Below are positions 46,764-48,940 of a stretch of DNA of 64,000 nucleotides, piece by piece (position 1 is the stretch's first letter; each line of letters opens with the position of its first letter). Made by a program: the position numbers and the translations under genes. The stretch is from Gammaproteobacteria bacterium (GTDB taxonomy: Bacteria; Pseudomonadota; Gammaproteobacteria; SZUA-229), in the NCBI GenBank assembly GCA_029882395.1, contig JAOUKT010000002.1:50165-114164 (forward strand), written 5' to 3'. The notes beneath the pieces were generated by a model. That model was not told the origin of the DNA. It saw only the letters and a program-made list of their open reading frames with translations, and searched no databases.

Positions 46764-46793
46764 TTGACATTAGTTGTCTAGACAACTATATTT
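46764..46793 (+). promoter_or_regulatory. marR promoter with operator: TTGACA -35, an 18-bp perfect palindrome tagttgtctagacaacta, then a TATATT -10
   Basis: The palindrome fills the 18-bp spacer between the -35 and -10 hexamers directly upstream of the MarR gene. This is the classic autoregulatory layout. Confidence 0.55.
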
Positions 46794-46798
46794 ACAGA

Positions 46799-47248
46799 GT
46801 GCATAATAAAAACACTATTCCTGATGAGTTAAATAATGCGCTTGGATTTAATATTTATCGCACGGCACTGTTGTACAAGCGGGAATTGATTCAGGCTTTG
46901 TCGGACTATGAGCTGACGCCTGAGCAGTGGCAAACACTGGCTGTATTATGGCTCGGGGAGGACCCAAGATCTCAGGGCGAAATTGCCGAATTAACGATGC
47001 GAGATAAGCACAGTGTTTCTCGTTTGATTGCAAGAATGGAACAAAATGGATGGGTCACGCGTTTCGCTCATGCAAAAGACAAGCGCATAACAATGATTAA
47101 GCCAACTAAAAAGGCTAATGAGAGTCGGGAAGAAATTGTAAAAGCCTTGCAGCTTCACTTTGTTCCAATAAATAGTGTTCTTACTAAGGAGGAAAATGTG
47201 ACTTTGCTTGAGCTACTTAAAAAATTACGAGGATATTTGGAAGATTAA
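46799..47248 (+). CDS. MarR family transcriptional regulator
   Basis: Winged-helix MarR signature (LGFNIYRTALLYKREL...LTPEQWQTLAVL...SRLIARMEQNGWVTR). GTG start with a very short leader. Confidence 0.85.
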   Translation: MHNKNTIPDELNNALGFNIYRTALLYKRELIQALSDYELTPEQWQTLAVLWLGEDPRSQGEIAELTMRDKHSVSRLIARMEQNGWVTRFAHAKDKRITMIKPTKKANESREEIVKALQLHFVPINSVLTKEENVTLLELLKKLRGYLED

Positions 47249-47265
47249 ATCAAAAGGAGAAAGAA

Positions 47266-47646
47266 ATGAAAAAAGTTATAGTTTTAGTGGTATTGATGAT
47301 GTTGTCTGGTTGTGCGTTTCGTGAGTTTAAGCAGCAATTAAATGCAACAACAGATGGGCCGGTTGTTCTGGTCAATAAATTTAATGTAGATAGTGATGAC
47401 AGACAACACTTCCTAATTGAGTTTTCTAAAGTTAAGCAGTTTATGCAGAAACAGCCGGGTTATATATCTAGTCAGTTACACCAACCGGTAGGCGATTCAG
47501 AAGTATGGATGAATCTGGCGCGATGGGAATCAAATACGGCATTAAAAAATGCCATATTTAATCCCGGTTTCAAGTATGTGATCAAACAGTTGCCCGGAAG
47601 ACCTGAACCTGTATTGTTTAAGGAGCTGAAACTAATTAAGGGGTAA
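47266..47646 (+). CDS. ABM (antibiotic biosynthesis monooxygenase-like) domain lipoprotein
   Basis: Lipobox LSGC. ABM-like ferredoxin fold pattern (VLVNKFNV...W...ARWES). Confidence 0.55.
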   Translation: MKKVIVLVVLMMLSGCAFREFKQQLNATTDGPVVLVNKFNVDSDDRQHFLIEFSKVKQFMQKQPGYISSQLHQPVGDSEVWMNLARWESNTALKNAIFNPGFKYVIKQLPGRPEPVLFKELKLIKG

Positions 47647-47652
47647 AACATT

Positions 47653-48123
47653 ATGTTAAGAAATGGTCTAAAGGTTTTACATATTCTGGGTCTGGTTGTT
47701 TTCTTGGGAAGTATTATTACTTTTATTATTGCCTCTGAACTGTCTAATGAATCTGACCTTGCCGGCCTTGTTTTTGCCAGAGAACTTATCTCGACGGGTA
47801 CGTTAATAATTACGATTCCTAGTATGTGGTTAGTCATTGTAACTGGGACTGGAATGGCAATTATTTCTGCTAGGTTAAAACAAACGTGGGTAAGGATTAA
47901 GTTTGTCGTCAGTATAATTATCGCGATAAATGCTCATGCTTTTGTAATGAGTGCAGTAAAGGAAGCAACTTTACTAGCCAAAACATCATTACAGAAAGGC
48001 ATTATTCATGTTGATTATTTGCAGGCTTATACAGAGGAATCTATGTTTGGTGCGATAAATGTTTTATTGATATTGAGTTTAATCATCATTGCTGTTTTCA
48101 AACCAGGAAAAATTGAAATTTGA
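47653..48123 (+). CDS. Four-TM membrane protein (DUF2269-like)
   Basis: Hydropathy only. Confidence 0.45.
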   Translation: MLRNGLKVLHILGLVVFLGSIITFIIASELSNESDLAGLVFARELISTGTLIITIPSMWLVIVTGTGMAIISARLKQTWVRIKFVVSIIIAINAHAFVMSAVKEATLLAKTSLQKGIIHVDYLQAYTEESMFGAINVLLILSLIIIAVFKPGKIEI

Positions 48124-48152
48124 AAGAGCCGAAGATGTCTTTAGAAGTCTGT

Positions 48153-48940
48153 TTATGAAAAAGATAGAAAAATTTAAAATACTGATTGTTGTATTTTATT
48201 TGAACGTAGTACCTGTGCAAGCTGAAGAAAGTTTCTGGATGAATGTTAAAAGTGACTACGATGAGTTTTATTCAACAGATCGTTTTATACGTATGGCTTA
48301 TGTGTTTGCAGGTGGTGCTGCATTGGCTCATTCAGATGCTGATCAAAACTTTCAAAATGATTACCAAAATAATACACGATCTTCTGATACCGATGATTTT
48401 TCCAGTACGGCAAAACTTTTTGGTGAGGGGAAAATTTTAATTCCGCTGTCATTAATGTCAGTTGCGATAGACGATTACCTGAGAGAAGGACAGCCGCGGT
48501 CGGCGATGGGAAAGTGGGGGGCAGTTACAGCGCGTTCATATATTTCTGCTGCGCCGGCTTTACTGGCCACGCAACGCCTGACCGGGGCATCGCGCCCAAG
48601 CGAGCCGCCTTATCAGTCGGACTGGCAGCCGTTTAATGACTCCAACGGTGTCAGTGGTCATGCCTTTATTGGCGCGGTGCCGTTTATCAGTATCGCCTAT
48701 ATGAACGAAGGCAATACCTTTGTGCAATCTATGGCTTATTTGGCATCCACTTTCACCGCTATTTCCAGAATTAATGATGATCAGCATTACTTGTCACAAG
48801 CCGTGCTGGGCTGGTATCTGGCATGGGAATCGGTTGATGCGGTTAATGCTGTGCAAGCGAATAAAGAGAAAAAAATACACATCAGACCATTAGCCGGAGT
48901 CGAATCATACGGCGTGCAGCTTGTTCTGCAGTGGAATTGA
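48153..48940 (+). CDS. Secreted PAP2-superfamily phosphatase-like protein
   Basis: Signal peptide (start moved to MKKIEKFKIL...). PAP2 motifs ASRP, SGHAF, SRINDDQHY. C-terminal aromatic residue. Confidence 0.5.

Follow-up and report, generated by a model that had tools for sequence, protein, structure and literature searches.

A predicted self-repressed MarR operon with a conserved palindromic operator beside a PAP2-fold gene in a gammaproteobacterial genome

Genes at the locus

The window, by which we mean the whole 64,000-nucleotide stretch of a gammaproteobacterial contig (JAOUKT010000002.1) that was analyzed, carries four genes in the order marR-ABM-DUF2269-PAP2, all on the plus strand and separated by gaps of 17, 6 and 31 bp (Table 1). 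A preliminary description of the sequence had assigned them to a MarR regulator, an ABM lipoprotein, a small 4-TM protein and a PAP2-like phosphatase. All four domain assignments pass the Pfam cut-offs, the 4-TM protein falling into the DUF2269 family, and the PAP2 fold is also backed by structure.

Table 1. Coordinates of the features at the marR locus (positions within the window)
Feature	Position	Strand	Evidence
Three-gene cassette (promoter, marR, ABM, DUF2269), approximate	46697-48154	+	Absent from relative L015
Possible auxiliary operator-like site, GTTGTCTGTAGAAC	46722-46735		GTTGN6CAAC with one mismatch
-35 hexamer TTGACA, marR promoter	46764-46769	+	Read from sequence and promoter scan
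Perfect 18-bp palindrome TAGTTGTCTAGACAACTA, predicted MarR operator	46771-46788		Sequence and comparison with homologous sites
-10 hexamer TATATT	46787-46792	+	Read from sequence and promoter scan
marR, 149-aa MarR-family repressor	46799-47248	+	Pfam MarR_2 4.4e-13, MarR 8.1e-12
ABM-domain lipoprotein, 126 aa	47266-47646	+	PF03992 1.8e-11
DUF2269-family 4-TM membrane protein, 156 aa	47653-48123	+	PF10027, hydropathy and AF2
PAP2-fold exported protein, 261 aa, N-terminal signal-like segment	48155-48940	+	PF01569 and structure

The marR product scores 49.6 bits against PF12802 (MarR_2, cut-off 27) and 45.3 bits against PF01047 (cut-off 24.6). MarR proteins from the PDB align with it over residues 10-148, and 46 solved MarR-family sequences match. 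A redox-sensing regulator of the OhrR/MgrA type is ruled out by the lack of a reactive N-terminal cysteine: there is no cysteine among the 149 residues, which excludes thiol oxidation as the signal, and the scores of OhrR models stay well short of their cut-offs. E. coli MarR proper was rejected as well, the equivalog model NF008565 giving 26.7 bits against a cut-off of 240.

The ABM protein matches PF03992 with 44.5 bits (cut-off 23.1), and its N-terminus, MKKVIVLVVLMMLSGC, contains a lipobox, LSGC, at residues 13-16, which fits the pattern [LVI][ASTVI][GAS]C. Its best solved matches, 2ril (2.3e-8) and 9vah (5.8e-8), are both uncharacterised; 2ril was deposited as an antibiotic biosynthesis monooxygenase. 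The next solved relatives are the anthrone-type oxygenases 7bio, SnoaB and ActVA-Orf6, with E-values from 3e-7 to 2e-4. AAGGAG lies upstream of the ABM gene, and the ABM and DUF2269 genes each have a Shine-Dalgarno sequence of their own.

The DUF2269 protein matches PF10027 over residues 6-151 with 30.8 bits (cut-off 28). It has four hydropathy peaks (1.98-2.76), and its AF2 model consists of four helices (pLDDT 79). The family is small, with 315 cluster representatives among 1.84 billion. Conserved positions are H10, P56, G65, E129, G133 and N136, of which the His, Glu and Asn are kept within the predicted TM1 and TM4 segments. There is a weak match to UPF0093 (E = 0.07), and DUF989 has been described as distantly similar to DUF2269 at the HMM-HMM level (PMC4562309). 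In the literature, we found DUF2269 mentioned in two papers, in passing only, and nothing pertinent on MarR in combination with ABM, an operator and a membrane protein.

The PAP2 protein matches PF01569 with 30.8 bits (cut-off 27.2). Gene callers start it at TTG 48089, for a product of 283 aa; the alignment, and the homologues with their length of about 257-261 aa, favour ATG 48155 instead. The AF2 model (pLDDT 84.6) includes an extra C-terminal beta-hairpin at residues 240-259. In a Foldseek search with this model, all matches of probability above 0.5 belong to the PAP2 superfamily, headed by BsPgpB (5jki; TM-scores 0.56/0.70) and LpxE (6ebu; 0.45/0.68). A search of PDB sequences with the family profile retrieved no solved relative, only a spurious designed repeat protein. 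The helices are weakly hydrophobic (Kyte-Doolittle maximum 1.44).

The PAP2 motifs had been called partly degenerate, a description that the family alignment does not bear out. Motif C1 (K-X6-R-P) reads Q140-RLTGAS-R147-P148, with invariant Arg and Pro, and the Gln140 that replaces its Lys is nearly invariant in an alignment of 27 sequences. Motif C2 (SGH) is present as the invariant V166-S167-G168-H169. In motif C3 (S-R-X5-H-X3-D), S204-R205-X5-H211 is conserved and the final Asp is an invariant Gln215. Since these substitutions are conserved across the family, they represent a family signature rather than decay. The first half of the gene has a GC content of 38% and the second half 50.5%; a recombination junction inside PAP2 was rejected as the cause, the same gradient being found in most homologues.

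Promoter and palindrome upstream of marR

The layout of a TTGACA box, an 18-bp palindrome and a TATATT box reported earlier upstream of marR is indeed found at 46764-46792. With a 17-bp spacer and an 11/12 match, this is the top promoter-like site in a scan of 46000-49400. Of the 17 spacer bases, 16 belong to the palindrome, which also extends two bases into the -10 box. It has no second match in the window even when three mismatches are allowed (0.01 expected). Perfect palindromes of 18 bp as such number three in the window, versus 0.24 expected by chance. Neither 46000-49200 nor 51200-52100 matched an Rfam family in scans at E <= 1 and E <= 0.1.

An operator-like site with one mismatch to GTTGN6CAAC, GTTGTCTGTAGAAC, lies 51 bp upstream of the main palindrome, measured from centre to centre. 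A match of this quality would turn up by chance within 100 bp with a probability of about 0.04, and we tentatively list the sequence as a possible auxiliary site. Extra half-sites also occur upstream in L087, a locus with a MarR relative. The second GTTGN6CAAC match in the window, at 58729, was rejected because it lies inside a dsrH-like coding sequence and about one match is expected by chance.

The GTG start codon of marR follows the -10 box after 6 nt, close to the gap of about 5 nt first given, and has no Shine-Dalgarno sequence before it. Gene callers also pick this codon, and the N-terminus that it defines aligns with those of 18 homologues to within 1-2 residues. A similar geometry recurs in three relatives, where the -10 box is followed by the ATG after 6 nt (L087, with the box TATTAT, and L028) or 7 nt (L027). 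The earlier suggestion of a leaderless or nearly leaderless transcript agrees with both observations: transcription probably starts at or beside the GTG, and marR is probably translated without a leader. Most MarR relatives have a leader of 30-70 nt with a Shine-Dalgarno sequence and a second operator, which makes the leaderless layout a minority arrangement.

Conservation of the operator and gene neighbourhoods

The half-sites of the palindrome recur upstream of homologous marR genes. GTTGN6CAAC is found in the -150 to +10 region of marR in 28 of the 68 loci carrying a MarR relative, at a density of 3.8 sites per kb versus 0.074 per kb elsewhere in those loci, an enrichment of about 50-fold. 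The consensus of 32 distinct sites, TAGTTGTCnnGACAACTA, is identical to the window palindrome and has the layout TA-GTTG-TC-nn-GA-CAAC-TA. In 11 of these 32 sites TTGA[CT] directly precedes the palindrome, at most 12 nt upstream. The hosts of the MarR relatives include Cyanobacteria, Chloroflexota, Longimicrobiales, Fodinibius, Rhodothermales, SAR324 and Leptospirales. A literature search for the operator core, TTGTCTAGACAA, returned unrelated primers and shRNA sequences only.

The neighbours of marR recur as well. A 4-TM relative adjoins marR in L016-L021, L027, L030, L036, L049, L059 and L063, and the pair of marR and a 4-TM gene is found in 13 loci in all; where the MarR relative is distant, its 4-TM neighbour is linked to DUF2269 by an hhalign probability of 60% (E = 8.6e-5) together with a local HMM. 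An ABM gene adjoins marR in five loci (L019, L028, L052, L058 and L087). The ABM homologues in L087 and L028 are lipoproteins, with the lipoboxes LPGC and LPAC, respectively. Those in L052 and L019 have no signal peptide, so that action in the periplasm is not a feature of all. In L052, the MarR relative is followed by a cytochrome b561, an Anthrone_oxy (PF08592) membrane protein and an ABM protein. L087, whose MarR is 62% identical to that of the window, has marR, an ABM lipoprotein gene and DUF2269 in the same order.

That the palindrome is the operator of the adjacent MarR, as the preliminary description had proposed, is a prediction strongly supported by these comparisons and by the E. coli marO-like layout of the promoter. 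The palindrome might instead be bound by another regulator, or be a chance or structural feature, with the adjacent MarR acting elsewhere; the two further perfect 18-bp palindromes in the window do indicate that such elements are not unique to the marR promoter. However, the same palindrome accompanies this MarR subfamily across many phyla at an equal promoter position, as one would expect only of a site recognised by the neighbouring MarR, and its half-site spacing equals that of the E. coli MarR sites. We consider binding by another factor, or coincidence, very improbable. The leaderless layout is open to greater doubt. Either a promoter further upstream or a translation start downstream of the GTG would give marR a different 5' end, and the prevalence of leaders with second operators among the relatives points that way, as does a second, weaker promoter-like match at 46779-46807 (TAGACA-17-CATAAT) that overlaps the marR promoter. 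This overlapping promoter, however, would initiate transcription within the marR ORF. Between the GTG and Leu25 the reading frame contains no further ATG, GTG or TTG codon, homologues conserve the first 20 residues, and both the missing Shine-Dalgarno sequence and the spacing common to three relatives argue for a start at the GTG. A transcript with a conventional leader thus seems unlikely, albeit an alternative to be taken seriously.

Extent and origin of the cassette

Comparison with a related genome delimits the unit. Homology with L015 ends near 46696 and resumes at the PAP2 ATG. L015 retains the receiver-like gene, a 60-bp intergenic element, PAP2 and priA, and is devoid of marR, ABM and DUF2269; its PriA is 82% identical to that of the window. 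In L003, too, the three genes are missing between the receiver-like gene and priA, and PAP2 is present. The GC content is 44.8% for the window and 37.5% for the cassette, with values of 41.1% for marR (z = -1.0), 38.3% for ABM (z = -1.8), 34.8% for DUF2269 (z = -2.8, the lowest of 47 ORFs) and 44.4% for PAP2 (z = -0.1). As PAP2 is at the window average, low GC is a property of three genes and not of four. The closest MarR relatives outside the lineage come from an unplaced metagenome contig (62% identity) and then from other phyla at 53% or less. The cassette ends show no flanking direct or inverted repeats beyond short chance-level matches, the vicinity of the cassette contains no ORF for an integrase or transposase, and tblastn against PLSDB gave no plasmid match for the MarR or DUF2269 proteins.

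These data divide the earlier view of an AT-rich, horizontally acquired islet of four genes. Low GC and absence from L015 and L003 agree with it for marR, ABM and DUF2269; average GC and the position beside priA in both relatives, where the other three genes are lacking, contradict it for PAP2. The four-gene view is thus only partly supported: the acquired unit probably comprises marR, ABM and DUF2269 only, and PAP2, judged by its genomic context, is a resident gene outside that unit. The accompanying reading of an envelope-modification module is not supported, because it rested on PAP2 belonging to the unit. PAP2 is probably co-transcribed with the cassette by read-through, as a secondary consequence of the insertion, since neither a promoter nor a terminator is evident between DUF2269 and PAP2: the scan of 46000-49400 found no plus-strand promoter-like site after 46807, and there is no convincing terminator hairpin between the two genes or after PAP2.

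Could all four genes nevertheless have arrived together, as one MarR-controlled module for envelope modification or detoxification with PAP2 as an integral partner? They lie on one strand, 6-31 bp apart, without an intervening terminator, and in a relative with 89% identity, on a single 2159-bp contig (P0002 and P0122), DUF2269 again lies immediately 5' of PAP2. Against this stand the average GC of PAP2, its occurrence without the other three genes beside priA in L015 and L003 and behind rpoH in L005, L011 and L013, and its absence from all 73 loci carrying a MarR relative. With respect to evolutionary origin a common source of the four genes is largely refuted, and we rate such a module as quite improbable. 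It is also conceivable that the site carried marR, ABM and DUF2269 ancestrally and that L015 and L003 lost them, with no horizontal acquisition. The direction of the indel was inferred from an unrooted comparison of three related genomes, and the lack of an integrase, a transposase and flanking repeats is compatible with loss. The low GC content of DUF2269 and the distribution of the nearest MarR relatives speak against it, however. Moreover, the three genes are also missing near PAP2 in the more distant L005, L011 and L013, and ancestral presence needs two independent losses, or one in the common ancestor of L015 and L003. Ancestry followed by loss is therefore the unlikely direction, and insertion of a three-gene cassette next to a resident PAP2 gene is the reading that we retain.

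Proposed function and its implications

Taken together, we consider it reasonably probable that the locus is a self-repressed MarR operon that arrived as a three-gene cassette beside a resident PAP2 gene. A MarR dimer would bind the 18-bp palindrome within the spacer of its own sigma-70 promoter and thereby block RNA polymerase; release of the repressor is expected to depend on a small-molecule ligand. The marR mRNA would be leaderless, beginning at or next to the GTG, with ABM and DUF2269 translated from their own Shine-Dalgarno sequences. On arrival, the cassette would have replaced the native upstream region of the priA-adjacent PAP2 gene, placing PAP2 under MarR control by read-through. 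The ABM and 4-TM proteins might act jointly at the membrane to oxidise or detoxify an aromatic, quinol-like or anthrone-like compound that would also be the MarR ligand. Membrane-linked oxidation of an aromatic compound, suggested by the anthrone-type relatives of the ABM protein, the gene order in L052 and the conserved His, Glu and Asn of DUF2269, is the weakest step of this scheme.

A broader and far more speculative proposal, which we put forward as a long shot, is that this MarR subfamily and a 4-TM protein of the DUF2269 type, always with the TAGTTGTCnnGACAACTA operator and frequently accompanied by an ABM oxygenase, constitute an uncharacterised inducible module distributed across phyla. 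The 4-TM protein would be its redox-active partner, similar to HemJ, PuuD or DUF1772 and using the His, Glu and Asn in its predicted TM segments, and the substrate, oxidised jointly with a cofactor-free ABM oxygenase, would be an aromatic or quinol-type compound.

As a MarR operon, the locus would be well behaved and ordinary, and leaves current understanding unchanged. Its value lies in part in the operator: one consensus for a whole MarR subfamily in many phyla amounts to a comparatively validated prediction for dozens of promoters. The regulon is also a lead for DUF2269, which is found alongside a ligand-sensing repressor and, in many cases, an ABM oxygenase; the inducible redox module, if true, would provide the first function for this family. 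Finally, the locus may illustrate operon capture, in which a resident PAP2 gene loses its own upstream region to a cassette and probably comes under a foreign repressor.

Comparison with known systems

The closest parallel for the regulatory region is marRAB of E. coli, where the repressor gene is likewise the first of its own operon and starts with GTG. The E. coli marO region reads TTGACT-tat-ACTTGCCTGGGCAAT-ATTAT and is followed by a second site ahead of the marR GTG. A -35 box of the form TTGAC(T/A) is common to marO and the window, and in marO site I and in the window alike, two half-sites, TTG(C/T)C and G(G/A)CAA, lie 2 bp apart within the spacer between the -35 and -10 boxes. By hand count, ACTTGCCAGGGCAACTA of the window and AGTTGTCTAGACAACTA of marO are identical at 12 of 17 positions. 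In contrast to marO, the layout in the window is leaderless and includes one strong site only; many relatives of the window MarR do have a second site between promoter and start codon, like marO site II. Nor is the window MarR an orthologue of E. coli MarR, as its NF008565 score indicates, and the downstream genes differ: an ABM lipoprotein and DUF2269 in the window, marA and marB in E. coli.

Among membrane proteins, HemJ/UPF0093, Anthrone_oxy/DUF1772 and the short DUF989 proteins related to PuuD are four-helix proteins of about 150 aa, like the DUF2269 protein, and in L052 an Anthrone_oxy protein holds the equivalent slot after the MarR relative. The ABM domain is shared with the cofactor-free oxygenases ActVA-Orf6 and SnoaB and with 7bio, a putative anthrone oxygenase, which by sequence are the closest functionally characterised solved relatives of the window protein. 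In contrast to these, the window protein is predicted to be an exported lipoprotein, by virtue of its lipobox, and its gene has no polyketide cluster nearby. The PAP2 protein resembles B. subtilis PgpB (5jki), Aquifex LpxE (6ebu) and class A acid phosphatases in its fold, and shares with them the Arg-Pro of C1, the Ser-Gly-His of C2 and the Ser-Arg and His of C3. It departs from them in having Gln140 for the Lys of C1 and Gln215 for the Asp of C3, as well as in its weakly hydrophobic helices and its additional C-terminal beta-hairpin.

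Three probably inserted genes beside a resident PAP2 gene

Four plus-strand ORFs run from marR on, with gaps of 17, 6 and 31 bp, and all four score above the Pfam gathering thresholds. The preliminary description had grouped them into one AT-rich islet. Low GC and membership of a common unit hold for marR, ABM and DUF2269, which were probably inserted together; neither extends to PAP2, which is resident. L015, a relative's locus encoding PriA and PAP2 proteins 82% and 67% identical to those of the window, has the same flanks, namely the 126-aa receiver-like gene, a conserved 60-bp intergenic element, PAP2 and the convergent priA, with ~118 bp from the element to PAP2 and no marR, ABM or DUF2269. 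Homology between L015 and the window ends near 46696 and restarts at the PAP2 start codon. In L003, another relative's locus (PriA 81% identical), PAP2 likewise adjoins priA and the three genes are missing. Base composition agrees with this division into three probably inserted genes and a resident PAP2.

Table. Features of the marR–PAP2 region and of other parts of the window (GC of the whole window, 44.8%)
Feature	Positions	Strand	Profile (bits/cut-off)	GC	Remarks
1180-aa protein gene	42585-46127	-			
Receiver-like gene	46132-46512	-			126 aa
60-bp intergenic element	46572-46631				AGGACTAGTCG twice, 21 bp apart
-35 hexamer TTGACA	46764-46769	+			then 17-bp spacer
Perfect 18-bp palindrome TAGTTGTCTAGACAACTA	46771-46788				predicted MarR operator
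-10 hexamer TATATT	46787-46792	+			after 17-bp spacer
marR	46799-47248	+	MarR_2 (49.6/27)	41.1%	
ABM	47266-47646	+	PF03992 (44.5/23.1)	38.3%	
DUF2269	47653-48123	+	PF10027 (30.8/28)	34.8%	z = -2.8, lowest among 47 ORFs
PAP2	48155-48940	+	PF01569 (30.8/27.2)	44.4%	
DnaA-box gap	51243-52064				~820 bp, ~36% GC
DnaA-box cluster (TTATNCACA)	51394-51957				5 of the window's 7 matches, in 564 bp
58-nt direct repeat	51393-51450, 51755-51812				two DnaA boxes in each copy
Further perfect 18-bp palindrome TGCCAGTTTAAACTGGCA	20005-20022				
Further perfect 18-bp palindrome CTATCCCATATGGGATAG	55009-55026				
dsrF/dsrH/dsrC-like ORFs	58046-59160				TusB/TusE-like

The three genes keep company elsewhere. 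L087, whose MarR is 62% identical, carries marR, an ABM lipoprotein gene and DUF2269 in the order of the window, and L019 has all three in the order marR, 4-TM, ABM. A gene for a 4-TM protein adjoins marR in L016-L021, L027, L030, L036, L049, L059 and L063; this protein matches DUF2269 over its full length (hhalign, E = 8.6e-5) and shares with it conserved His, Pro-x-Met, Gly, Glu, Gly and Asn residues. ABM adjoins marR in L019, L028 (a lipoprotein there too), L052 and L058. No PAP2 gene is present in the 73 loci carrying a MarR relative. From composition, parsimony and the fact that the MarR protein has its affinities in foreign lineages, we infer insertion in the window rather than loss elsewhere. 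Neither mobility genes nor flanking repeats were detected at the cassette. A recombination junction within PAP2 was also considered and rejected, since the AT-rich first half of the gene is common to most homologues checked. In L003, PAP2 (6001-6783) has priA on one side and the conserved intergenic element on the other, but is inverted relative to the window and L015; the short stretch from priA to the receiver-like gene is an apparent hot-spot for rearrangement.

The insertion would have replaced the DNA upstream of PAP2 up to its start codon. Because of this replacement, and because there is neither a plus-strand promoter-like site between 46807 and PAP2 nor a hairpin in the 31-bp DUF2269-PAP2 gap (minimum free energy -5.1 kcal/mol, z = +0.8), read-through from the marR promoter probably now accounts for the transcription of PAP2. 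The idea of co-expression can thereby be kept, though as a chance result of the insertion instead of a purpose-built module. The envelope-modification system proposed initially gives way to a MarR-ABM-DUF2269 cassette upstream of a resident PAP2 gene.

Promoter and start of marR

The promoter region of marR reads cTTGACAtTAGTTGTCTAGACAACTATATTtacagaGTG. Its two hexamers match 11 of 12 consensus positions and form the top promoter-like site of 46000-49400; of the 17 spacer bases the palindrome takes in 16, and it extends over the first two positions of the -10 box. The promoter enclosing a palindrome and the GTG start described at ~5 nt past the -10 box are thus both present, the spacing being 6 nt. 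Proteins of 18 homologues begin with M-x(3-4)-IP-x-xL(N/D)xALGFNIYR, and the N-terminus read from the GTG, MHNKNTIPDELNNALGFNIYR, is in register with them. The GTG is the sole in-frame start codon ahead of Leu25 and has no Shine-Dalgarno sequence upstream. The layout recurs in L087 (TTGACA-17-TATTAT, 6 nt, ATG), L028 (-10 box, 6 nt, ATG) and L027 (-10 box, 7 nt, ATG). Given the start register, the absent Shine-Dalgarno sequence and the geometry in three relatives, a marR message with no leader, or almost none, is plausible. The MarR sequence contains no cysteine, and therefore a thiol switch of the OhrR/MgrA type is ruled out.

PAP2 protein

For PAP2, ATG 48155 is favoured over the TTG 48089 chosen by gene callers, because the homologues, with lengths of 257-261 aa, start their alignment at that Met. 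The family (415 matches) is found chiefly in uncultured Gammaproteobacteria. The protein is exported, either to the periplasm or to a membrane; it has an N-terminal signal-like segment, weakly hydrophobic helices (Kyte-Doolittle maximum 1.44) and a C-terminal beta-hairpin. Its AF2 model is confident (pLDDT 84.6), and the best structural matches all belong to the PAP2 superfamily: B. subtilis PgpB (TM-score 0.56/0.70), Aquifex LpxE, human LPP1, class A acid phosphatases and vanadium haloperoxidases. In an alignment of 27 sequences, Arg147-Pro148 (C1), Ser-Gly-His167-169 (C2) and His211 (C3) are invariant and Arg205 (C3) nearly so. The motifs had been called partly degenerate; the C1 Lys is replaced by a nearly invariant Gln140 and the C3 Asp by an invariant Gln215, and since these substitutions are kept across the alignment, the motifs are a conserved variant, not decay, and the protein may be a phosphatase whose chemistry is altered. 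In L005, L011 and L013, loci of more distant relatives (PAP2 at 6001-67xx), the homologue comes after ftsY-ftsE-ftsX, a GGDEF response regulator gene and rpoH (sigma-32), with 137-165 bp between it and rpoH; this neighbourhood hints at a heat-shock or envelope-stress link for the family.

Other features of the window

The 60-bp intergenic element is ~82% conserved in L015 and L003, where the surrounding intergenic DNA diverges. It has no Rfam match and is probably a regulator-binding site for the receiver-like gene, as it lies 60-120 bp upstream of it. Just upstream of the receiver-like gene is the gene for an exported 1180-aa protein with a lipobox-like N-terminus, Asp-rich repeats of the calcium-binding type and a long C-terminal region rich in Gly; its L003 counterpart is ~30% identical over part of the length only. 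The DnaA-box cluster occupies an AT-rich gap between priA and a rhodanese gene that contains no ORF of at least 120 aa, no GC-skew switch and no Rfam match. A DnaA-titrating site, a regulatory site and an origin-like element are possible readings. The dsr-like ORFs suggest that the window comes from a sulfur-oxidising gammaproteobacterium.

Function of the cassette

The ABM protein has an LSGC lipobox at residues 13-16. Its nearest solved structure is 2ril, deposited as an antibiotic biosynthesis monooxygenase but uncharacterised; the cofactor-free anthrone-type oxygenases 7bio, SnoaB and ActVA-Orf6 come next. In L052, the genes after that of the MarR relative encode cytochrome b561, an Anthrone_oxy membrane protein and an ABM protein. 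DUF2269 is a small family (315 cluster representatives among 1.84 billion at E <= 1e-3) that keeps H10, P56, G65, E129, G133 and N136. The window's member has four hydropathy peaks (1.98-2.76) and four predicted helices. The only functional hints are its weak match to HemJ/UPF0093 (E = 0.07) and the published distant HMM similarity of DUF2269 to the membrane domain of the urate oxidase PuuD (PMC4562309). A tentative reading of the cassette, and the weakest part of our interpretation, is that it oxidises or detoxifies an aromatic or quinol-type compound in a ligand-inducible, membrane-linked process.

Operator conservation and comparison with marRAB

The proteins most similar to the window's MarR, 21 in all at 44-62% identity, were gathered, and 71 loci encoding MarR relatives were taken from genome and metagenome collections; their hosts include Acaryochloris, Chloroflexota, Longimicrobiales, Fodinibius, Rhodothermales, SAR324 and Leptospirales. 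Among the 68 loci with sufficient upstream sequence, 28 have a GTTGN6CAAC core within -150..+10 of marR (41 sites), a density of 3.8 sites per kb versus 0.074 per kb elsewhere in the same loci. Position counts over 32 distinct sites give the consensus T-A-GTTG-T-C-n-n-G-A-CAAC-T-A, exactly that of the window's palindrome, and in 11 of the 32 TTGA[CT] stands a few bases before the palindrome, in the promoter-spacer position seen in the window. Many relatives have a second operator copy ~31-37 bp downstream, between promoter and start codon. The window holds no second copy of its palindrome (up to 3 mismatches allowed, 0.01 expected). Perfect 18-bp palindromes number three in the window (0.24 expected at its composition); the two others are possibly operators too, and that at 55009-55026 lies between divergent ORFs, one ending at 54768 and the other starting at 55215.

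The palindrome as predicted MarR operator is strongly supported by this comparison, and the preliminary label of a textbook operator is apt, because the site is conserved upstream of relatives and its plan matches that of E. coli. The system would be an autoregulated MarR operon, a well-known kind; it is of modest interest for an operator consensus shared across phyla, a lead for DUF2269 and a resident gene that has probably been captured. The window's MarR is not an orthologue of E. coli MarR proper, since it scores 26.7 bits against NF008565 (cut-off 240). The layout of operator sites in its relatives is nevertheless that of the MG1655 marRAB control region, TTGACT-tat-ACTTGCCTGGGCAAT-ATTAT followed by ACTTGCCAGGGCAACTA directly before the marR GTG, and the window's site has the same half-site spacing as the marRAB site and is identical to it at 12 of 17 positions (hand count).
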